In this document: piece by piece, positions 27,227 through 39,286 of the stretch
How positions within the stretch are numbered: position 1 is the stretch's first letter
Layout of the letters: each line of letters opens with the position of its first letter
Origin: Minisyncoccota bacterium
GTDB taxonomy: Bacteria; Patescibacteriota; Minisyncoccia; UBA6257; 2-01-FULL-56-20
Direction of reading: 5' to 3'
Length of the DNA: 64,000 nt
Assembly: GCA_025449695.1 (NCBI GenBank)
Contig: JANWIW010000027.1
Span: 283 to 64,282, forward strand
Notes under the pieces: model-generated
What the model was told of the DNA's origin: nothing
Seen by the model: the letters and a program-made list of their open reading frames with translations, nothing else
The model's database searches: none
Position numbers and translations under genes: made by a program

Positions 27227-27311
27227 GGAGGGGTCGCATAGCGGTCTAGTGCGCACGCTTGGAAAGCGTGTGTACCGAAAGGTACCGAGGGTTCGAATCC
27301 CTCCCCCTCCG
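27227..27311 (+). tRNA. tRNA-Ser (anticodon GGA)
   Basis: Acceptor GGAGGGG/CCCCTCC, anticodon loop TTGGAAA, long variable arm, T-arm GAGGGTTCGAATCCCTC. Confidence 0.7.
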
Positions 27312-27457
27312 CGAGAAGGTCTTATGAGCGAAGCGAGCTAGGGCTTCTCGCGCCCCGCGCTGCGTCCCGCGAAGCTTTAGCGGAGTGGGATTGCTTTGTA
27401 GAACCTTCGTTCGTTGGGTAGTTTTATTTTTGTGGATTCTATGTTGTACTAAACGGT

Positions 27458-28591
27458 ATGATTGATGAGTGGCAGGAAGCCGAGTCTTTTGAAGGAAGCA
27501 CGCTTCATAGTGCGCTGGGAGGGCCCGCGGAGCATCCCGAGGCGAGCGCCAAAAGCGAGTTCGCAGAGACGATATCCCTTCTCAGGTTTTTGAACGAAGG
27601 GGCTCTTCGGGGCGTACTGACACAGTTTCTGACTCAGTTTCCCGGAAGTAGGGAAAGCATGGAGGCAGTCATAAAGAACGTGGCGCGACGCAAGATAGAG
27701 CAAAGGGATCCCGACGAGATAGACGCAATTCTTGATCAGGCTGACAAGAATGGAGCGAATCCCGAGGCGCTGGTACAAATGCTTATGCAGAGTATCTCGC
27801 TGGGTAATAGCAAATTGCGTAGGGACTGGAGTGTTTTCACGGGCGCGACCGCAAATGTACGTTTCGCGTTGTCACACGTAGAGAACGCGGAAGCCGACGT
27901 CGAGAGTGAGCTGAGAGCCCTCGCAAAGGAGAGGTCGGACCACACGGCCAGTATCACCTTTATGAAAAGACTTATACTGAAGAAGCTGCCGGACAGGGCT
28001 AAGGATATCAAAAGATTCTTCGAAGAATCTGATCTTGCGGCAGCGGAGGTTGATTACCGCGCGAGGATTTTCTTCTCTCATGGCCGCGCGGATCTCCATG
28101 ACGCTGGTCCGAAAGGAAAGCGGATGGAGGAGATACTTTCGACGCTGAAGCATGACAAGAAGGTGGAGGTGTGGCAGGACGTACAGGGCATACAAACAGC
28201 GGATGATTTTCAGGAGCGTATCTTAAACGCTATCATCCATTCCGACCGGGCAGTGGTAATGCTCGGCAACGCCTCCATTCGCAGCGAGTGGGTCTTCAGG
28301 GAAATACAGGCCTTTCAGCTTTATGGAATCGATATCGTGCCAATCCTTGTAGAGGATATTGTCCCGCCCGACCAAGAGAAAGAACCTGAAGCATGGGCCC
28401 GCTATCAGGAGATCCGAGAGCGTATAGGCGCACTCAATTATATTGACGTGCGCAAATTAGAACCCTTGCCCTCTGCCGGGAAGGAAAAAGCTTCGGAATC
28501 GGCGGCATTGCGCAAGAAGATCTCGGGCGATTTCGAGAGACTGCTCCCTTTGAACGATCAGGAGCGTTTCGATCGATTCTATAAAGTCTGA
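27458..28591 (+). CDS. TIR-domain protein (C-terminal TIR, N-terminal helical domain of unknown function)
   Basis: TIR box 1 RIFFSHGRAD and catalytic-Glu motif SIRSEWVFREIQ at about aa 205-340; gene is about 50% GC against about 62% in flanks and follows tRNA-Ser. Confidence 0.7.
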   Translation: MIDEWQEAESFEGSTLHSALGGPAEHPEASAKSEFAETISLLRFLNEGALRGVLTQFLTQFPGSRESMEAVIKNVARRKIEQRDPDEIDAILDQADKNGANPEALVQMLMQSISLGNSKLRRDWSVFTGATANVRFALSHVENAEADVESELRALAKERSDHTASITFMKRLILKKLPDRAKDIKRFFEESDLAAAEVDYRARIFFSHGRADLHDAGPKGKRMEEILSTLKHDKKVEVWQDVQGIQTADDFQERILNAIIHSDRAVVMLGNASIRSEWVFREIQAFQLYGIDIVPILVEDIVPPDQEKEPEAWARYQEIRERIGALNYIDVRKLEPLPSAGKEKASESAALRKKISGDFERLLPLNDQERFDRFYKV

Positions 28592-31226: not shown

Positions 31227-31562
31227 CTACAAGCTCATAAGCACCGCCCCAATTACGGCGAGAATAATGCCTGCGCCCTTTACGGCGGATAGGCTTTCTT
31301 TGAATATAAGGATGCCGGATAGGACGCCTAGAATGGAGTAAAAGACGACGTAGAGGGTTGTGTAGATGGTCAGCTCTCCCTTATACACGAAGATATAGAT
31401 GGCGAAGAGAATCTGGACAAAGTAGAGGGCGTAAACCACGAGCATCCATGGATCCCGAAGCGCGTCCATGATCGTGCCGGAACTGACCTTCTTAATGATC
31501 GAATCTCCGACAATAACGGTGAGCGCGGAGAGGAAGATGAGCGCCGTCCCGGCTAGGTTCAT
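31227..31562 (-). CDS. SMR-like 4-TM small transporter (DMT superfamily)
   Basis: Four hydrophobic helices in 111 aa; internal Met (MNLAG) preferred over the non-ATG track start at 31613. Confidence 0.5.
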   Translation of the reverse strand: MNLAGTALIFLSALTVIVGDSIIKKVSSGTIMDALRDPWMLVVYALYFVQILFAIYIFVYKGELTIYTTLYVVFYSILGVLSGILIFKESLSAVKGAGIILAVIGAVLMSL

Positions 31563-31712
31563 GCCGTGATTATTCCATGAGCAGCAGAGAGTCACAATGC
31601 GTTCTATTGACAACTTCCTGCACGATGGTTTAATTTGGCCAGTCCACTAAACCCAACTGGATACGGTATCCGTGCTGCCCACGGACCTGAATCAGAGTAC
31701 TGACAGGAGTGT

Positions 31713-32267: not shown

Positions 32268-32362
32268 TCATCGATCGAGGGAGAGGGTCTCACCACCCTC
32301 TCCGCTCAACCCAAGCCCATGAACAATGGATTTAGGTTGGGGGCGTGGTATAAAGTAGGCAT

Positions 32363-34150
32363 ATGGGTCCGGAGACCCCTTCGACGGCTTCAATAAGTTC
32401 ACCGCAAGCAAGCTCAGGGCAAGACCGGGTATGCGCGAACTGCAAGGAACGGTTCACACTTGATCCGGATGATTTTTCTTTTTATCAAAAAATAGAGGTC
32501 CCGGCGCCTAGGTTCTGTCCCGCCTGCCGCAATCAGCGCCGGAGAGCATGGCGGAACGACATCTCTTTCTATAAAAGACAGTGCGATCTTTGCAAGAAGA
32601 ACATTGTCTCCCTCTACTCGCCGGACAAGACCCTTACCGTCTATTGCCAGAAATGCTGGTGGTCGGACGCTTGGGACCCGAAAGCTTACGGGCGAGATTT
32701 CGATTTCTCGCGGCCGTTTTTCGAGCAGTACCGCGAGCTTCAGAACGTGGTGCCCCTGATCGCGCTCATGAACGACGATGGGATAGGGAGCATCAACTGC
32801 GAATACACGCAGAACGTATCCTCGGCAAAGAACTGCTACATGGTGTCCTCTTCCTGGAAGAACGAGGAGTGCGCGTACGACATGCAAATATCCGGTCCGG
32901 AGCTTCGCGAGGTGTTCGATTCCCTGGATATCTTCCAGAAGTGCGAGATGGTGTACGACAGCATCTTTCTGGAGAGCTGTTACCGCGTACGAAACTGCTA
33001 CCGATCGTTCGCGCTCGTTGATTGCGCGTTTTGCCTGGAGTGCCGGGATTGCCAGGACTGCTTCATGTGCGTAGGGCTTCGCCGCAAGCGCTACTGTTTC
33101 AAGAACAAGCAGTATACGAAAGAGGAGTACGAGAAGATACTGGCGGAGTACAGGTTAGATACTTGGGACGGCAGGGAGCGCGCCCGGAAAGAATTCCAGG
33201 AGTTCATCCTGGAATATCCCCGCGAGTTCGCTATCCTCCGGAACTGCGTGAACTGTACGGGCGATCAGATGTTCAACTGCAAGAATATGAAGTATTCCTT
33301 CAATGTGCGGGGAAGCGAGGATACGGCATATTTCGAGAACGGTAATATCATCAAGACAGGATACGACATGGCGACAGGCGGCGAGAACGAAGAATGCTAC
33401 GAGGGCATCACTCCCGACAACGACTATCGGGCATTATTCACCATCTTCTCCTGGAAGAACTCGCATGCTGAGTATTGCGAGAATTGCCACTCTGGACAGA
33501 ATCTTTTCGGATGCTCCAGCCTGCGCGGCGCAAAGTACTGCATCTTGAACAAGGAATACACCAAAGAGGATTATCACGAGCTCCGCATCAGAATCGTCGA
33601 GCATATGAAGAAGACCGGGGAATATGGAGAGTTCTTCCCGGCGAAGCTCTCCCATTTTTGTTATAACGAGACCACTGCCCAGATGTATTTCCCGATCACC
33701 AAAGAAGAAGCACTGGCCAAAGGATATCGCTGGCAGGATAGCTTCCAGTTCACGACCGGCAAAGAGACGATCAAGGTAGAAGCTCTGCCCCAGACCATCG
33801 CGGAGGTGGGTGATGGCATTATGAAAGAGGTGCTTGCTTGTACTAACTGCAAACGTAATTACATCATCGTCCATCAGGAGCTCCAATTCTATCGGCGAAT
33901 GAACCTGCCTTTGCCGCGCCAATGTTTCTACTGCCGCAATGACGAGCGAATGCGTCTTCGGAACCCGTTCCGCCTTTGGCAGAGGCAGTGTGACTGCAAG
34001 GGCGCAGGATCGACTAACGGCATATATGCGAACGGAGAACCCCACTTCCACGGGGAAAAGGCATGTCCCAACACGTTCCAAACCCCCTATGCTCCCGAGC
34101 GCCCGGAGATAGTGTATTGTGAAGAATGCTATCAAGCCGAAGTCGTATGA
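32363..34150 (+). CDS. cysteine-rich multi-zinc-ribbon protein, paralog 1 of 4 (unknown function)
   Basis: 595 aa, about 8% Cys. N-terminal CxxC-x14-FYxK-x3-PxPxxCPxCRxQRR ribbon repeated near the C-terminus; central CxxCxDCxxC clusters each followed by YC(I/F)xNK(Q/E)YTKE(E/D)Y; conserved C-terminus PEIVYCExCYQAEVV. Confidence 0.7.
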   Translation: MGPETPSTASISSPQASSGQDRVCANCKERFTLDPDDFSFYQKIEVPAPRFCPACRNQRRRAWRNDISFYKRQCDLCKKNIVSLYSPDKTLTVYCQKCWWSDAWDPKAYGRDFDFSRPFFEQYRELQNVVPLIALMNDDGIGSINCEYTQNVSSAKNCYMVSSSWKNEECAYDMQISGPELREVFDSLDIFQKCEMVYDSIFLESCYRVRNCYRSFALVDCAFCLECRDCQDCFMCVGLRRKRYCFKNKQYTKEEYEKILAEYRLDTWDGRERARKEFQEFILEYPREFAILRNCVNCTGDQMFNCKNMKYSFNVRGSEDTAYFENGNIIKTGYDMATGGENEECYEGITPDNDYRALFTIFSWKNSHAEYCENCHSGQNLFGCSSLRGAKYCILNKEYTKEDYHELRIRIVEHMKKTGEYGEFFPAKLSHFCYNETTAQMYFPITKEEALAKGYRWQDSFQFTTGKETIKVEALPQTIAEVGDGIMKEVLACTNCKRNYIIVHQELQFYRRMNLPLPRQCFYCRNDERMRLRNPFRLWQRQCDCKGAGSTNGIYANGEPHFHGEKACPNTFQTPYAPERPEIVYCEECYQAEVV

Positions 34151-35901
34151 CCGAAACGCGCACTTGCGGTCATTGCCGGAGATCCTTTGTCGTGGAGGCG
34201 GACGATTTCTCGTTCTACGAAAAACTCAACGTGCCGCCTCCGACCTTCTGTCCGGATTGTCGCAAGCAGCGGCGGTTGGCATGGCGCAATGATAGTACGC
34301 TTTACTCAAGAGCTTGCGGTCTTTGCGATAAGAACACGATATCCATCTACGCGCCAAACGGCCCCATGCAGATCGTCTATTGCCAGAAGTGCTGGTGGTC
34401 CGACAAATGGGACCCCAAAGAGTACGGCGCAGAATACGATTTCTCCAAAACTTTCTTCGAGCAGTTTGCGGAACTTCAGCGGCGCGTTCCCGCACTCGCG
34501 ATGACCAATGACGACGGCATTAGCAGTGTCAATTCTGAATATACCCAGGATTTTGCGCGAGCAAAGAACTGCTACATGTGTTTCATCGGCTGGAAGGTGG
34601 AGGACTGCCTGTACGATTTCTACATCATAGGAGGTAAAGAGATAGTAGACGCGATCAACAGCATGGGGGAATGCGAGTACACTTATGAAACCGTCTATAC
34701 GGAGAAGTGCTATCAGAGCAGATATATCTACTCCTCGGTTTCCGTCTCCGACAGCGCTTTTTGTTATGATTGCAGGGACTGCACGGATTGTTTTATGTGC
34801 GTCGGTTTGCGGCACAAGCGGTATTGTTTCAAGAACAAGCAATACACCAAAGAAGAATACGAGAAAATACTTGCCGATTATCGCTTGGACACATACACCG
34901 GCGTGGAGCGTGCGAAGAAGGAGTTCGCGGACGTATTTTTCAGCAAGCCCAGGCGGTTCGCCATGCTCCGTAACTGCTTCAACTGCACTGGTGATGCGCT
35001 GATCAACGGCAAGAACTCAAAATACTGCTTTAACGTGCAGCGCCCCGAAGAAACCCGGTGGGTGGAGAATGGCGATACGCCGAAAGACAGCTACGATTTG
35101 AGCGTGGGAGGCGAGTTGCAGCAATGTTATGAAGGAATCACTCCGGACCATTCGTACCAAAGCCGCTTTGCCATATTTTCCTGGAGGAATACAGATGTTT
35201 CTTATGTCGACGGCTGTCATGCATCCGAACATCTTTTTGGATGTGCGGGCCTTAAGAAGGGACAGTACTGCATTTTCAACAGGCAATATCCGAAAGAGGA
35301 ATACGAGTCATTGGTAAAAAAGATAAAAGCGCAGATGGATGGTATGCCCTACGCCGACCGGCAAGGCATAAGCTACAAGTTTGGGGAGTTCTTCCCTGCG
35401 GAACTCTCCTATTTCCGATACAACGAGACCGTTGCACAGGAATCCTTCCCTCTTACCAAGGAGAAGGCCTCTGCGGAGGGATTGGATTGGCAGGAGCAAT
35501 TCCAGGTCACGATCGGGAAGGAGACGATCGATATCGCTAAGGTCCCCGATGCGATCGCCGACGTACCCGACTCCATAGTGGACGAGGTGCTTGCATGCGC
35601 AGGATGCGCGAGAAATTATCGCATAGTGCCTGCCGAGCTCAAGTTCTATCGCAGGATGAGGATCCCCCTTCCCCGGCGTTGTTTTTACTGTCGTCAGGCA
35701 GACCGGCTGAAATTCAAGAACCCCCATAAACTGTGGCACAGGCAGTGCCAATGCGCAGGAGAAAAGGAAAGCGGTTTCAAGAACACAGCAGCTCATTTCC
35801 ATGGCAAGAATTCTTGCCCCAATGAATTCGAAACCCCTTATGCTCCCGAGAGCCCCGAGATAGTGTATTGTGAACAGTGTTACCAAGCCGAAGTCGTATG
35901 A
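34147..35901 (+). CDS. cysteine-rich multi-zinc-ribbon protein, paralog 2
   Basis: Start MTETRTCGHC overlaps the paralog-1 stop (ATGA); same architecture. Confidence 0.7.
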   Translation: MTETRTCGHCRRSFVVEADDFSFYEKLNVPPPTFCPDCRKQRRLAWRNDSTLYSRACGLCDKNTISIYAPNGPMQIVYCQKCWWSDKWDPKEYGAEYDFSKTFFEQFAELQRRVPALAMTNDDGISSVNSEYTQDFARAKNCYMCFIGWKVEDCLYDFYIIGGKEIVDAINSMGECEYTYETVYTEKCYQSRYIYSSVSVSDSAFCYDCRDCTDCFMCVGLRHKRYCFKNKQYTKEEYEKILADYRLDTYTGVERAKKEFADVFFSKPRRFAMLRNCFNCTGDALINGKNSKYCFNVQRPEETRWVENGDTPKDSYDLSVGGELQQCYEGITPDHSYQSRFAIFSWRNTDVSYVDGCHASEHLFGCAGLKKGQYCIFNRQYPKEEYESLVKKIKAQMDGMPYADRQGISYKFGEFFPAELSYFRYNETVAQESFPLTKEKASAEGLDWQEQFQVTIGKETIDIAKVPDAIADVPDSIVDEVLACAGCARNYRIVPAELKFYRRMRIPLPRRCFYCRQADRLKFKNPHKLWHRQCQCAGEKESGFKNTAAHFHGKNSCPNEFETPYAPESPEIVYCEQCYQAEVV

Positions 35902-37580
35902 CCGAAACGCGCACTTGCCAGAACTGCAGCCAAGGGTTCTCCATAGAGGACGAGGACTTCAATTTCTACAAGAAGATAGAAGTGCCGCCGCCGACTCTCT
36001 GCCCCGACTGCCGCCAACAGCGTCGTATGGCTCATCGAGACAAAAACTATTTTCTAAGAAACTGCGACAAGTGCGGCAAAAGCTCCATTTCCATTTGGCA
36101 CCCCGACATTAAAGGCTATCTTTTTTATTGCAACGATTGCTGGTGGAAGGATGATTGGGATGCCTTCGAGTACGGGCGGGATTTCGACTTCTCTCGTCCG
36201 TTCTTCGAGCAATTCAACGAGCTGTACAAAGCCGTGCCGAAGCATATCTCGAACGCGATGCTTAATATGAAAAACTCCGACTACTGCATCAATGCCTCGC
36301 GGAGCAAAGACTGTTATATGGCTGACGAGATAGACGAATCAGAGCGTTGCGCCTACGGATACTGCGTCCAGAACTGCAAAGACTGCACAGATTGCCTCTA
36401 TGTCAACGAATGCGAGATAGGCTATGAGCTGGTGAAGTGCGATAACAACTATAAGGTTTTCTATGCCTACGATTCACACGCTTGTAATAACTCCGCGTTC
36501 CTGGCTCATTGTCGGGGCGTTTCAAATTCGCTGTTTTGCACCAATAAATACAACGTCACGAATTACTTGTTCAATGAACCCTCCACCGCAGAGGAAGTGA
36601 AGAAGGCCTGGGACGAAATCTTCTGTGGCAAAAACGGCAAACTCCAGGAGGCGCTCGCCAAGTACCAGGAGATCCTCAAGTCCTCCATCTCTCGTCCGCT
36701 TATCGGTACGAACGTCAAGAACTCATCGGGCAATTTTCTGGTTAACGTCCAGAATTGCAAAGACTGTTATTCGATAGACAACAGTATCAACTGTAAATAC
36801 TGCACGGACATCCATCATTCCAAAGACAGCATGGACGTGCATATTTACATCAGCGAACTGAGCTATGAGAGCCTTCACGCCTGGGGTTATAAACAGCTAT
36901 TCTCGCATCTCCTTTGGAACTGCTCCGATGCTACCTACGCCGACGAATGCCATAACAGCCAAGACCTCTTCGCCTGTTGCGGCCTCAAGAAAAAACAGTT
37001 CTGTATCCTCAACAAGCCTTATAGCAAGGAAGAATATCTGGAGTTGAAAGAAAAGATCATTGCCCACATGAAGCAGACCGGCGAGTACGGCGAATACTTT
37101 CCGGTTTCCATGTCGCCGCACGGCTACAACCACACCTTCGCGCAAGAGTTCTATCCGATGACCGAAGGAGAAGTAAAACAGCGCGGCTGGCAATGGCTTC
37201 CTGAAATCAACATCAGGGACAAGTACAAAGACAAAGTGATCACCCAGCTTCCTGATGATATCGCGGAAACCACACCCGCAATCTGTAATGAGATATTCGA
37301 GTGCGAAGCGAGTGGCAGGTTCTATCGGATAATTCCCGATGAGTACCAGTTTTATAAGAAGCACGGCTTGCCCCTGCCGCGTTTGTCGTCTCAAGAGCGC
37401 GACCATCTGCGTTGGGAGAAAACGAAGCCACGCCATCTATGGGACAGGGAATGTGCCTGTGCGAAGCAGTCCCACTTCCACGGGGCCAGCTCTTGCTCCA
37501 ATGCATTTAGGACCACACATGCTCCCGAGAGCCCCGAGATAGTGTATTGTGAGCAGTGTTACCAAGCTGAAGTCGTATGA
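35898..37580 (+). CDS. cysteine-rich multi-zinc-ribbon protein, paralog 3
   Basis: Start MTETRTCQNC overlaps the paralog-2 stop (ATGA); same architecture, more diverged middle. Confidence 0.7.
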   Translation: MTETRTCQNCSQGFSIEDEDFNFYKKIEVPPPTLCPDCRQQRRMAHRDKNYFLRNCDKCGKSSISIWHPDIKGYLFYCNDCWWKDDWDAFEYGRDFDFSRPFFEQFNELYKAVPKHISNAMLNMKNSDYCINASRSKDCYMADEIDESERCAYGYCVQNCKDCTDCLYVNECEIGYELVKCDNNYKVFYAYDSHACNNSAFLAHCRGVSNSLFCTNKYNVTNYLFNEPSTAEEVKKAWDEIFCGKNGKLQEALAKYQEILKSSISRPLIGTNVKNSSGNFLVNVQNCKDCYSIDNSINCKYCTDIHHSKDSMDVHIYISELSYESLHAWGYKQLFSHLLWNCSDATYADECHNSQDLFACCGLKKKQFCILNKPYSKEEYLELKEKIIAHMKQTGEYGEYFPVSMSPHGYNHTFAQEFYPMTEGEVKQRGWQWLPEINIRDKYKDKVITQLPDDIAETTPAICNEIFECEASGRFYRIIPDEYQFYKKHGLPLPRLSSQERDHLRWEKTKPRHLWDRECACAKQSHFHGASSCSNAFRTTHAPESPEIVYCEQCYQAEVV

Positions 37581-39286
37581 GCAACGAAACCAAAACCTGC
37601 CAAAACTGCAAGAAGGAGTTCGTTATCGAACCGGACAACGCCGCGTTCTGCGCGCACATGCAGGTGCCGCTCCCGACCTGGTGCCCGCCCTGCCGCCGCT
37701 TGCGGCGCATGGGCTGGACCGGCTACAGGATCCTCTATAAAAGGAAATGCGCCTACTCGGGGGAGGATATCATCACCTTCTACCATCCCAACGCTCCGTA
37801 TGTGATCTACAAGCAGGACATATGGTGGAGCGACAAGTGGGACCCCAAGAGCTACGGACGGGACTACGATTTCTCCAAGCCGTTCTTCCAGCAGTTCGAC
37901 GAGCTTCTGCGGTCGGTGCCCCTGCCCTCGCTCCATACGGAGTACACGACTCTCGTGAACAGCGACTACTGCAATGCCGTAGGGGGCCTGAAGAACTGCT
38001 ATCTGGTCTTCCAGTCCGGGGACGGGGCCTCGCATATAGGCCACGAGAATACGGCATACATGCACATGGTGGACGACACGAAGGACAGCATGGACATGTC
38101 CTTCTCCTCGAACTGCGAGCTTTGCTACGAGTGCGTGCGCTGCTTTGGATGCTTCCGGGCGCGCTGGTCCGCGAACTGCGACGAATGCCATAACGTCGCG
38201 TTTTGCCAGAGCTGCATTGGCTGTTCCGACTGCGTCGGCTGCGTGAATTTAAAGAACAAGTCGTATTGCATCTTCAACGAGCAGTATTCCAAGGAAGAGT
38301 ACGAGCGCAAGCTGAAGGAGCTCGATCTGGGATCCCGCGAAGGATTGGACAGGTTCGCGGTGGAATTCGCCAAGTTCGCGGAAAAGATGCCCCATCGCAT
38401 GTTCTACGGCCGGCACAACACTTCTACTTCCGGCGACTACATCTCCAATTCCAAGAACGTCCACGATTCCTACATCGTCCATGGCGCAGAGAACGTGCGC
38501 TACGGGCAGCTGCTGAGCGCGCCCGCGGCCAACGCCTACGACTACACGCTCTTCGGCACGTTTGCGGAGTGGATCTACGAATGCGCGTGGAATGGCTTGA
38601 GCAGCAACACGCTCAAGTTCTGCTTCTGGAACTACCACGCCCATCATCTTGATTACTCCCTCGGCTGCCACGGGTCGGAGAACCTGTTCGGCTGCGTGGG
38701 GGTTCGCAAGGGCTCCTATTGCATCTTGAACAAGCAATATTCCAGGGAGGAGTATCAGGAACTCGTCGCGGATATAAAACAGCAGATGGCGGAAATGCCC
38801 TACGTGGACCGCCTGGGCCGGAACTACTCGTACGGGGAGTTCTTCCCGCCGGAGATATCGCCCTGGACCTTCAACGAGTCTATGGCGTCCCTGGGCTTCC
38901 TCCCTTTGTCCCGCGAGGAAGCCCTGGCGCAGGGGTTTAACTGGCGCGAGGATGATGGCCGCCAGTATCGGGAGCCGACCGCGCCGGTACCGGCAAGTAT
39001 CAAGGATGTTCCCGAAGATTTCTCCAAGGAGATACTGAAGTGCGAGTATTGCGGTAAGAACTACCAGATCATCCCCATGGAATTGGATTTCTATCGCCAG
39101 TGGGACGTTCCCATCCCTTTGCGCTGCCCCTTGTGCAGGGAGAAAGACAGGGTCGCCAGCCTGAACCCCATGGCCATCTACGACCGGGAGTGCATGAAGT
39201 GCGGCAAGTCCATTCAAACCTCCTACGCGCCAGAAAGGAAAGAGATTGTATATTGCGAGACCTGCTATCAAAACGAAGTTGCATAG
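37577..39286 (+). CDS. cysteine-rich multi-zinc-ribbon protein, paralog 4
   Basis: Start MSNETKTCQNC overlaps the paralog-3 stop (ATGA); CIGCSDCVGCVNLKNKSYCIFNEQYSKEEYE; C-terminus IVYCETCYQNEVA. Confidence 0.7.
   Translation: MSNETKTCQNCKKEFVIEPDNAAFCAHMQVPLPTWCPPCRRLRRMGWTGYRILYKRKCAYSGEDIITFYHPNAPYVIYKQDIWWSDKWDPKSYGRDYDFSKPFFQQFDELLRSVPLPSLHTEYTTLVNSDYCNAVGGLKNCYLVFQSGDGASHIGHENTAYMHMVDDTKDSMDMSFSSNCELCYECVRCFGCFRARWSANCDECHNVAFCQSCIGCSDCVGCVNLKNKSYCIFNEQYSKEEYERKLKELDLGSREGLDRFAVEFAKFAEKMPHRMFYGRHNTSTSGDYISNSKNVHDSYIVHGAENVRYGQLLSAPAANAYDYTLFGTFAEWIYECAWNGLSSNTLKFCFWNYHAHHLDYSLGCHGSENLFGCVGVRKGSYCILNKQYSREEYQELVADIKQQMAEMPYVDRLGRNYSYGEFFPPEISPWTFNESMASLGFLPLSREEALAQGFNWREDDGRQYREPTAPVPASIKDVPEDFSKEILKCEYCGKNYQIIPMELDFYRQWDVPIPLRCPLCREKDRVASLNPMAIYDRECMKCGKSIQTSYAPERKEIVYCETCYQNEVA

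Follow-up and report, generated by a model that had tools for sequence, protein, structure and literature searches.

A coupled array of four diverged zinc-ribbon paralogs in a Patescibacteria contig: possible adaptors or clients of soluble TrwB/VirD4-like ATPases

The domains closest to the terminal modules of the proteins described here are two small ribbon families. zf_Tbcl (PF13451), annotated as a "probable treble clef", has two CxxC pairs separated by approximately 24 residues and then a basic helix, and is a Pfam family without known function; zf_Tbcl_2 or CxxC-x17-CxxC (PF23477, TIGR04272) likewise has no demonstrated function. The closest structure for the central part is the secreted antifreeze protein of Tenebrio molitor (PDB 1ezg), a right-handed beta-helix with a 12-residue coil period and Cys at fixed inward positions, of which two per coil, six residues apart, form disulfides. 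The ATPases encoded beside many homologues resemble VirD4/TrwB coupling proteins (T4CPs). Patescibacterial genomes carry about two T4CPs each, orphan T4CPs are abundant in Patescibacteria and possibly exapted, only 148 of 5,713 patescibacterial T4CPs lie near virB4, and relaxases are rare (PMC12102498).

The window (the whole 64-kb stretch of DNA analyzed) contains four co-directional ORFs on the + strand, g1 (32363–34150), g2 (34147–35901), g3 (35898–37580) and g4 (37577–39286), encoding products of 595, 584, 560 and 569 aa. With their ATG starts, the products are identical to the proteins recorded for the 68.7-kb NCBI contig, in agreement with the four tandem genes proposed in an earlier sequence-only reading. 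The genes are true paralogs, with identities to g1 of 56% (g2), 38% (g3) and 37% (g4), and no fifth copy is present within the window. All three junctions consist of GTCGTATGA, within which start and stop codons overlap as ATGA (34147–34150 for g1/g2, 35898–35901 for g2/g3 and 37577–37580 for g3/g4), and the translational coupling proposed earlier holds at each of them. Synonymous-codon identity is higher in the last 40 codons, in g1–g3 only. No TM-like segment was found in g1–g4 (19-residue hydropathy windows, maximum 1.32) and a CxxC ribbon lies right at the N-terminus of each, which bears out the lack of a signal peptide; the family proteins are soluble and cytoplasmic. HMM searches of Pfam, NCBIfam, PHROGs and PADLOC gave no match above cut-off for g1–g4, nor does any PDB family claim them, as expected of the unrecognised family that had been suspected.

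Upstream of g1, a TG-extended -10-like box, TGGTATAAA (TGgTATAAA), is located at 32346–32354 on the + strand, and its hexamer TATAAA (32349–32354) ends 8 nt before the ATG. Though a consensus sigma-70 scan calls no promoter at this box, 21 of the 70 homologues that lead arrays elsewhere have a -10-like hexamer ending 6–9 nt before the ATG, over a flat background. Because the same -10 position recurs in these homologues, the near-leaderless start context noted earlier is comparatively supported. Judged from its sequence, the TATAAA box likely drives transcription of the operon as a leaderless or near-leaderless mRNA.

An internal duplication underlies each protein, whose modules run ribbon A, ribbon B, S1, S2, M, ribbon A', ribbon B'. 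In g2, our reference for the domain map and models, ribbon A (C7, C10, C35, C38; zf_Tbcl-like, basic) and ribbon B (C57, C60, C79, C82; CxxC-x17-CxxC-like) occupy residues 1–100 (34147–34446, + strand), and the pair A' (C484, C487, C512, C515) and B' (C534, C557, C575, C578) occupies residues 478–584 (35578–35898, + strand). The two pairs are homologous (hhalign probability 99.8, E 6e-28). M (residues 401–477; 35347–35577, + strand) is an acidic, highly conserved domain with the motif YGEFFP..S.F.YNET.AQ..FPL and no detectable relative. In most members the first ribbon begins 2–9 residues after the Met, and g1 carries a 17-residue N-terminal extension. The C-terminus is fixed, at exactly 6 residues past the last CxxC in g2 and in 95% of family members.

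Among 483 aligned sequences, the Cys quartet of ribbon A is complete in 451 and otherwise mostly lost all together; ribbon B is complete in 323 and lost in 145 (about 30% of members), and A' and B' are complete in 414 and 464, respectively. Since retention or loss affects all four Cys of a quartet together, the quartets have the behaviour of structural Zn(Cys)4 sites, with zinc assigned from conservation patterns only. The homology of the two pairs and this block-wise retention confirm the view that the terminal modules are zinc ribbons, duplicated at both ends. The architecture is not the same in all four genes, as had been supposed: g1 and g2 have all ribbons intact (type ABab), g3 has lost the Cys of A' (type AB-b) and g4 those of B (type A-ab). 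Arrays contain both complete and ribbon-degenerate members. Further details were amended: the Cys content is 6.0–6.6%, not about 8%; the YC(I/F)xNK(Q/E)YTKE(E/D)YE tail, thought to follow every Cys cluster, is not universal, its first copy (YCxxNKQY.KEEY) being degenerate in g3; and g4 ends in KEIVYCETCYQNEVA, not in the shared PEIVYCE(Q/E)CYQAEVV.

Ribbons A and A' show the two CxxC pairs and following basic helix of zf_Tbcl and match residues 4–44 of its 48-residue model, at scores below the gathering cut-off (24 bits): ribbon A of g2 reaches 19.4 bits (E 1.1e-3), and PF13451 matches at E < 0.01 occur in 14 of 36 members, none reported above cut-off. Ribbons B and B' show homology with zf_Tbcl_2 and have the ..VYC..C signature in common with it, but the family scores below the cut-offs of PF23477 (27 bits) and TIGR04272 (36 bits); B' of g4 gives 24.3 bits (E 2.5e-5) and 19.5 bits, respectively, and the other paralogs were not reported. 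In further contrast to zf_Tbcl_2, B is frequently lost and B' has a variable insertion with extra Cys/His. No match to the DnaJ-type Cys-rich zinc finger (DnaJ_CXXCXGXG) was found in any paralog, and CxxCxGxG is absent from the alignment.

S1 of g2 (residues 115–245; 34489–34881, + strand) comprises about eight 12-residue coils and ends with a CxxCxxCxxC coil (C209, C212, C215, C218) and the YCFKNKQYTKEEYE cap. S2 (residues 270–400; 34954–35346, + strand) is its duplicate (hhalign probability 99.95, E 5e-38). The coils follow the motif K[ND]C[YV]x(C)xx(C)xxx; Cys autocorrelation has maxima at lags 3, 6, 9 and 12, and hydrophobic autocorrelation at lag 12. The AlphaFold models, on which the fold assignment rests, predict both segments to be narrow right-handed beta-helices, built of 12-residue coils as in the Tenebrio antifreeze protein. 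The pLDDT was 85 in a fragment model of the helices, and only about 60–66 in the helix region of the first model, made from 36 sequences. There is no sequence relationship with 1ezg (E 6.6). The family lacks the TCTxSxxCxxAx motif and the Thr ice-binding ladder, its Cys are often replaced by S/V/L where the antifreeze protein has its disulfide pairs, and unlike the secreted insect protein it is bacterial and cytoplasmic, without signal peptide, with the helix embedded between zinc ribbons. Pentapeptide-repeat proteins, bactofilins and hexapeptide left-handed beta-helices differ from it in coil length (12 versus 18–20 residues), handedness or cross-section, and motifs, and gave no Pfam match.

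The family is large, uncharacterised and found almost only in Patescibacteria (CPR). More than 5,347 word-index matches were obtained, and clustering at 50% identity yielded 4,998 clusters at E ≤ 1e-3 and 2,146 at E ≤ 1e-30; the best 150 clusters listed span 433–612 aa and are nearly all matched full-length. At least 575 loci are present in GTDB species genomes, and among the 80 loci listed every titled record leads to Patescibacteria, save one 2.6-kb contig labelled Ignavibacteria. The family was not found in phages, plasmids or IMG/VR. Arrays hold from one to at least 12 copies in tandem, and in four of them CutA1 genes lie among the family genes.

Every paralog is more similar to a protein of another genome (77%, 69%, 61% and 48% identity) than to any member of its own array. 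Between paralogs, S1/L/S2 are 16–37% identical and the ribbons 33–72%; between orthologues, S1/S2 are 71–87% identical and the ribbons 59–90%. The helices are thus the most divergent part among paralogs and the most conserved among orthologues, and as their surfaces differ between paralogs and are conserved between orthologues, we infer that each paralog is a rigid binder of its own target. The four genes are accordingly anciently diverged, specialised family members, and the proposed diversifying cassette set was abandoned.

Gene neighbourhoods were surveyed in the 80 loci listed of at least 575 (1.28 Mb in all), with T4CP-like ORFs counted from 380 aa upwards. Such an ATPase is present in 26 of the 80 loci, and 32 ORFs were seen where about 3 are expected, assuming genomes of approximately 0.9 Mb with about two T4CPs each (PMC12102498). 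In 18 loci the ATPase gene directly neighbours family genes on the same strand, and in 11 it has family genes on both sides. No T4CP-like gene occurs anywhere in the window, nor within 10 kb in 54 of the 80 loci; the association recurs but is not obligatory. The neighbour ATPases match TrwB_AAD_bind, T4SS-DNA_transf, TraG-D_C and DUF87 in Pfam and VirD4-like/TraD models in NCBIfam, but hydropathy reveals no TM segment, and so they lack the membrane anchor of the VirD4/TrwB coupling proteins. Long ATPases carry zf_Tbcl_2 (41.8–55.8 bits in Pfam), which is homologous to ribbon B (hhalign probability 96.2, E 2e-9) and B' (93.4, E 2.6e-7) of the family. A reverse look-up from the ATPase side returned the order T4CP-long, two family genes, T4CP-short in two of two loci. 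Apart from the ATPases, the neighbourhoods are heterogeneous.

We assign a probability of roughly 0.4 to the reading that the array is one operon of four diverged paralogs whose products are paralog-specific adaptors or clients of soluble TrwB/VirD4-like ATPases. The four genes would share a leaderless mRNA, on which translation would re-initiate at each ATGA overlap. The helices would make each paralog a rigid binder for its own target, and the conserved ends (ribbons A and B', domain M and the fixed C-terminus) may attach every paralog to one shared partner. That partner would most likely be the soluble, hexameric TrwB/VirD4-like ATPase that flanks or interrupts arrays and bears a B-type ribbon in its long form, and the family would then be a set of specificity adaptors, or clients, of an ATPase machine. 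It is possible, if doubtful, that the family and the short and long soluble ATPases, joined in some lineages by the unannotated membrane proteins TM450 and c15, constitute an unrecognised, Patescibacteria-specific ATP-driven machine, with the paralogs as interchangeable cargo-selecting modules for the hexameric motor or as the cargo itself. If true, this would explain the purpose of thousands of patescibacterial "orphan T4CPs".

We regard it as unlikely that the paralogs instead build a hetero-oligomeric structural assembly, stacking through their beta-helix ends like bactofilin- or curli-like solenoids into a complex or cytoplasmic filament, with the operon setting the stoichiometry. ATGA coupling at all three junctions, the tight packing of family genes elsewhere (39 of 165 consecutive pairs overlap and 59 are spaced by 1–100 nt) and the mixture of complete and ribbon-degenerate members would suit such a structure. 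However, arrays are not made up of the same members everywhere: in relatives, the g2 orthologue has no other family gene in its locus, and the g1 orthologue forms a pair with another, non-orthologous family member. This weakens the obligate four-subunit form of the stoichiometric complex suggested earlier. Copy number also varies, from one to at least 12, and other domains cap both helix ends, which would hinder end-to-end stacking.

A role in nucleic-acid binding also has a low probability; here the basic treble-clef ribbons would contact DNA or RNA, and the proteins would either pass it on to an FtsK/HerA/TrwB-type nucleic-acid pump or regulate that pump, for example when these bacteria, which are auxotrophic for nucleotides, take up or process DNA. 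Basic pI values are indeed seen for ribbons A and A' (median 8.5 and 9.5), a B-type ribbon is fused to ATPases matching the Pfam "coupling protein DNA-binding domain", and ribbons of the TIGR04272 type also occur C-terminal to DEAD-box helicases. Against this, the protein taken in full is acidic (median pI 6.1, net charge -6), as are the helices and M, domain searches detect no nucleic-acid-binding domain, and relaxases are rare in Patescibacteria.

Some neighbourhoods point to proteostasis or export, where the proteins would be holdases or substrate adaptors working with DnaK/DnaJ/GrpE or a Sec-proximal ATPase module. Family genes and both ATPases lie inside grpE-dnaK-dnaJ at L085/L086 and L056/L060/L065/L066, and a secDF-sigma-TM450-c15-T4CP-family block occurs in 10–11 loci. 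The dnaK context amounts to approximately one evolutionary observation, because these loci belong to one closely related lineage (ATPases 88–95% identical). Neighbours are unrelated in the window and around close relatives of g1 and g2, the g2 orthologue lying among enolase, DoxX and VKOR genes and the present array beside Dus, Maf and NUDIX genes. The family has no similarity to any chaperone domain, and we consider such a role quite improbable.

Still less credit is given to secretion or surface display, as type-IV-dependent effectors or antigenically varying cassettes held by extracellular disulfides as in the insect antifreeze fold. VirD4-like coupling proteins adjoin arrays, the C-terminus is strictly conserved and type IV secretion signals are typically C-terminal; the closest structure is disulfide-stabilised, and DoxX-VKOR lies beside the g2 orthologue. 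But the proteins have neither signal peptide nor TM segment, the neighbour ATPases are themselves without TM segment, and the same ribbon types are fused to these cytoplasmic enzymes. Loss of Cys quartets in fours fits zinc rather than paired disulfides, and the helices are conserved between orthologues, not hypervariable. Known T4CP adaptors, relaxases and effectors show no resemblance to the family, no virB4 or channel genes were noticed beside the ATPases among clustered neighbours in the loci seen, and few patescibacterial T4CPs lie near virB4 at all.

Most helix Cys columns are only 30–65% Cys, with S/V/I/L/T as substitutes. C209, C212, C215 and C218 are each 76–95% conserved, yet no more than 267 of 483 sequences have the full set, CCC.,.CCC and C.CC being frequent, and only three equivalent positions are kept in S2. 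The spacing differs from Fe-S motifs (CxxCxxCxxxCP, CxxxCxxC), with CxxC recurring regularly in phase with the coils, and Fer4, Radical_SAM and SPASM gave no match at E ≤ 1 for g1–g4 in Pfam and NCBIfam. Single replacement by Ser, Val, Ile or Leu, the 3/12-residue periodicity and the antifreeze-like helix core in the model argue against the Fe-S/redox sites once envisaged; the "CxxCxxC" cysteines line the helix core, where other residues can take their place, and do not ligate Fe-S clusters. That the central runs hold Fe-S clusters or store metal is highly improbable, the conservation of the C209–C218 set and the CutA1 genes within four arrays being set against the common single losses, substitutes other than His/Asp, the incomplete S2 set, the lack of Fe-S domain matches and a Cys content (6%) far under that of metallothioneins. 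The paralog g4, in which the S1 helix is most Cys-rich, has among its best matches in the fetched loci L003_12296 and L060_8188, two genes that abut long T4CP ATPases.

The cysteine-rich genes g1 to g4 lie in tandem on the forward strand of the window and encode, counted from an ATG, 595 (g1, 32363–34150), 584 (g2, 34147–35901), 560 (g3, 35898–37580) and 569 residues (g4, 37577–39286). Their products align over the whole length, with g2, g3 and g4 sharing 56, 38 and 37% identity with g1. They are identical to database proteins of a 68.7-kb NCBI contig, each of which is a singleton at 90% identity without a name. A fifth copy of the family was not found in the window. Start and stop codons overlap at all three junctions (sequence GTCGTATGA), and no 19-residue segment of g1–g4 reaches the hydropathy of a signal peptide or a transmembrane helix. 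The open reading frames, the alignment and the database proteins bear out the sequence-only reading of four co-directional paralogs of these lengths, as do the junctions its overlapping codons and the hydropathy its lack of a signal peptide. Cysteine makes up 6.0–6.6% of the residues, less than the 8% or so claimed before. The architecture described as shared by all four genes holds in the whole-length alignment, except that the second N-terminal ribbon (B) of g4 and the first C-terminal ribbon (A′) of g3 lack their cysteines. Likewise, the tail motif said to follow the clusters (YCxxNKQY.KEEY) is missing in its first copy from g3, and the supposedly common C-terminal end is replaced by a variant tail in g4. 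These results show that g1–g4 truly form a tandem operon of four genes from a very large, uncharacterized family.

Searches of g1–g4 against Pfam, NCBIfam, PHROGs and PADLOC gave nothing above cut-off and, besides a weak PHROG match in g3 and g4, only sub-threshold ribbon matches, in line with the earlier failure to recognize a family. A sequence profile search of the PDB yielded no significant match (LIM, E 0.013; 1ezg, E 6.6), a Foldseek search of the PDB with the full-length model no match, and the phage, plasmid and IMG/VR collections no family member. Literature searches yielded nothing on either the family or the Pfam models of its ribbons, and we found no library model, solved structure or publication that covers it.

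A word-index search with g2 retrieved more than 5,347 matches, named only as hypothetical or after a ribbon; all named sources belong to the Patescibacteria/CPR (e.g., Paceibacterota, Nomura-, Sung-, Azam-, Portnoy- and Staskawiczbacteria). An exhaustive profile search of 1.84 billion representatives matched 4,998 clusters at 50% identity (E ≤ 1e-3), 2,146 of them at E ≤ 1e-30; the best 150 of the 4,998 measure 433–612 aa and match nearly all at full length. Scanning a single genome for each GTDB species identified at least 575 loci. We fetched 80 homologous loci from other genomes (L001–L080), and among those listed the titled records all point to Patescibacteria (Parcubacteria orders, Peregrini- and Peribacteria), with the exception of one Ignavibacteria-labelled contig of 2.6 kb (L011, JBHEKU010000072.1) that is probably mis-binned. 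The family was found almost only in Patescibacteria. Many other loci bear "uncultured Candidatus Saccharibacteria" titles from an automated pipeline, and taxon names on such MAG records call for caution. Family genes in the 80 loci form tandem same-strand arrays that range from one copy to 12 within at most 22 kb. The array of L042, with 12, continues past both locus ends, L051 and L047 have nine each, and L022 has 11 of about 1.7 kb within a 21.7-kb locus, so that up to about 3% of its 621-kb contig is taken up by the family. Consecutive family genes overlap in 39 of 165 pairs and are 1–100 nt apart in another 59. A large part of bacterial diversity belongs to the Patescibacteria, whose genomes measure about 1 Mb and whose dependence on hosts works through mostly unknown mechanisms; a family of thousands of sequence clusters without name or model represents a considerable part of their core biology that still lacks an explanation.

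Profile–profile comparison of sub-alignments revealed homology between the N-terminal 100 residues (ribbons A and B) and the C-terminal 107 (A′ and B′; probability 99.8, E 6e-28), and likewise between the first central predicted β-helix (S1, residues 115–245) and the second (S2, 265–400; probability 99.95, E 5e-38). S2 is followed by a strongly conserved acidic domain (M, 401–477). At the profile level, these comparisons show a double internal duplication in the order A-B-S1-S2-M-A′-B′. A and A′ are of the zf_Tbcl type (E < 0.01 in 14 of 36 members, under the gathering score) and B and B′ of the CxxC-x17-CxxC type (zf_Tbcl_2; 24.3 bits for g4 B′ against a cut-off of 27), which supports membership in these two families for the ribbons only and at profile level only. 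Among 483 non-identical full-length members, the cysteine quartet is complete in 451 for A, 323 for B (wholly or largely lost in 145), 414 for A′ and 464 for B′, making A and B′ near-universal and B and A′ dispensable. Members that keep all four quartets account for 57%, those that lack B for 20% and those that lack both B and A′ for 7%. The C-terminus lies exactly six residues beyond the last CxxC in 95% of members. Whole quartets are retained or lost together, as would be expected for a zinc site with four ligands, and the ribbon cysteines are probably structural zinc ligands, the metal being suggested by this conservation.

The central cysteines behave differently. In the S domains, cysteine frequency is autocorrelated at lags 3, 6, 9 and 12 and hydrophobicity at lag 12, and stacking by twelves gives a coil motif, K[ND]C[YV]x(C)xx(C)xxx, with about eight coils per domain. 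Most cysteine columns of the coils are only 30–65% Cys, with Ser, Val, Ile, Leu or Thr as substitutes, and the full set of C209/212/215/218, from the coil conserved best, is present in only 267 of the 483 members, single losses being frequent. This evidence is independent of the structural model and accords with the β-helix. From the periodicity, the replacements and the single losses we conclude that the central cysteines would line the core of the predicted helix rather than serve as obligate Fe-S or zinc ligands. The Fe-S or redox scaffold proposed from the CxxC clusters was rejected on the same substitution pattern. The domain map thereby separates probable structural zinc ligands from cysteines that merely line a β-helix core. 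These helices resemble the Tenebrio-type beetle antifreeze protein in fold, without belonging to its family; the 12-residue β-helix so far known from that protein would gain a cytoplasmic bacterial counterpart, apparently independent of disulfides. The S1 stretches of g3 (gene 35898–37577; residues 125–241) and g4 (37577–39283; residues 174–241) weakly match phrog_15341, a phage family of unknown function (E about 1e-4), and a similar Cys-rich β-helix may be present in phages.

The closest relatives of g1, g2, g3 and g4 in other genomes share 77, 69, 61 and 48% identity, in each case above that of the nearest relative within the array (32–55% between the window paralogs). Between paralogs, S1, the linker and S2 are the least conserved parts (16–37%, ribbons 33–72%), whereas between orthologues (g2 against 30, g1 against two) they are the most conserved (71–87%, ribbons 59–90%). 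Purifying selection on paralog-specific surfaces leaves just this pattern, which points to many distinct, stable targets. By these identities g1–g4 appear to be old, specialized paralogs; the diversifying cassette set suggested earlier was rejected on the conservation of the helices among orthologues. A 68% orthologue of g2 is solitary, between enolase and DoxX-VKOR-EamA, and a 74% orthologue of g1 is followed by a non-orthologous family member. Array composition and synteny are thus not conserved, which weakens the proposed stoichiometric complex, and an obligate g1–g4 assembly was counted out on this ground. DoxX, VKOR (disulfide-bond formation) and EamA directly follow the g2 orthologue at L081 11778–13107 and also in L082 and L083; the window has an EamA-like small membrane ORF upstream of g1 (31227–31613, reverse strand).

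Upstream of g1, a TATAAA hexamer (32349–32354) ends 8 nt ahead of the ATG and no Shine-Dalgarno sequence was found. A strict two-hexamer sigma-70 scan called no promoter at this TATAAA, and an intrinsic terminator scan found none following g4; generic signals of either kind were rejected, as both scans were at or below shuffle expectation. We surveyed 70 array-leading homologues in L001–L080, each preceded by a spacer of over 60 nt, for matches to TATAAT at five or more of six positions. The hexamer ends 6–9 nt ahead of the ATG in 21 of the 70, with 0–1 cases at most other distances; only 12 of the 70 have an SD-like motif. The recurrent spacing supports leaderless or near-leaderless transcription, as read for g1 from its sequence, and suggests that it may be widespread for family genes and perhaps for Patescibacteria genes generally. 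The 138-nt junction stretches (34030–34167, 35781–35918 and 37460–37597) have DNA identities of 81 and 65%. At identical residues, synonymous-codon identity is 68–79% in the last 40 codons of g1–g3, 42–49% in the rest and 35–44% at the 3′ end of g4, which fits either gene conversion centered on the junctions or mRNA selection for ATGA re-initiation.

When every ORF of the 80 loci was clustered, the sole common neighbor was an ATPase matching TrwB_AAD_bind, T4SS-DNA_transf, TraG-D_C and DUF87, with weak matches to VirD4-like/TraD NCBIfam models and to TrwB in the PDB. This T4CP-like ATPase was detected in 26 of the 80 loci, and the 1.28 Mb contain 32 such ORFs of 380 aa or longer; about three would be expected from the rate of roughly two per Patescibacteria genome (PMC12102498), assuming genomes of ~0.9 Mb. 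In 18 loci it has a family gene next to it on the same strand, no more than 400 nt away; in 11 it interrupts a run of family genes, and it often flanks arrays on both sides (L003, L039, L056, L058, L060 and L078). Short (~485–508 aa) and long (613–866 aa) classes can be distinguished, almost none with a TM-like segment. The long form carries a bona fide zf_Tbcl_2 ribbon (41.8–55.8 bits) that is homologous to family ribbons B (probability 96.2, E 2e-9) and B′ (93.4, E 2.6e-7); comparison with A and A′ detected no homology. Its identity of 88–95% over the best 120 clusters of a search from the ATPase side far exceeds the conservation of the family.

Two gene orders recur. In both loci inspected from the ATPase side, the order is rpsI-grpE-family(1–2)-PaaX-dnaK-T4CPlong-family-family-T4CPshort-dnaJ, which places family genes and two TrwB-like ATPases within a grpE-dnaK-dnaJ locus (L085 3175–17853, L086 1042–17117), directly downstream of the ribosomal operon rpsK-rpoA-rplQ-rplM-rpsI. 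The second block is secDF-sigma70-TM450-c15-T4CPshort-family(n), seen ahead of the arrays of L029, L030, L033, L039, L041, L045, L048, L051, L052, L054 and L078. TM450 (~450 aa, hydrophobic and TM-like near its N-terminus) and the membrane protein c15 (~174 aa) had no significant match in Pfam, NCBIfam or the PDB, and may be membrane partners of the short ATPase. CutA1 (divalent-ion tolerance, PF03091, E 2e-24) is encoded within or beside arrays in L003 (7554–7859), L030, L051 and L078, and an unannotated cluster of ~97 aa (c40) is interspersed in those of L034, L051, L054 and L080.

Adjacency, bracketing and the ribbon in common make the soluble TrwB-like ATPases the best candidate partner. 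The helices would act as paralog-specific binding surfaces and the conserved ends, together with the M domain, would dock on a common partner. We give the model in which the family works with these ATPases as adaptor or client a probability of about 40%. Its rivals are a structural hetero-oligomer, nucleic-acid binding, an accessory role in proteostasis, secreted effectors and the Fe-S scaffold; secretion was rejected on the lack of a signal peptide or TM segment and on the block-wise loss of the cysteine quartets. The role of the orphan VirD4-like ATPases of Patescibacteria was left open by a 2025 survey (PMC12102498). The arrays are tied to these ATPases by genome position and a common domain, and, if the link is functional, the ATPases would gain a candidate partner and a new system would emerge. 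Small recognizable ribbons form part of the family, but its overall architecture is new, as are its cytoplasmic 12-residue helix lined with cysteines and its association with orphan T4CP-like ATPases in a candidate system. The ATPase link does not hold in the window.

In the window, tblastn with T4CP, TM450, c15, CutA1, sigma, SecDF and other neighbor clusters gave no match, and the array is bordered by unannotated genes on one side and Dus/Maf/NUDIX on the other. Two of the best matches of g4 among the fetched loci (L003_12296 and L060_8188) adjoin a long ATPase. The window also encodes a 377-aa protein (27458–28591, forward strand) with a C-terminal TIR_2 domain (PF13676, E 2.6e-12) and a weak ThsB_TIR match, a possible defence gene, which lies 3.8 kb upstream of the array and just after a tRNA-Ser gene (27227–27312).
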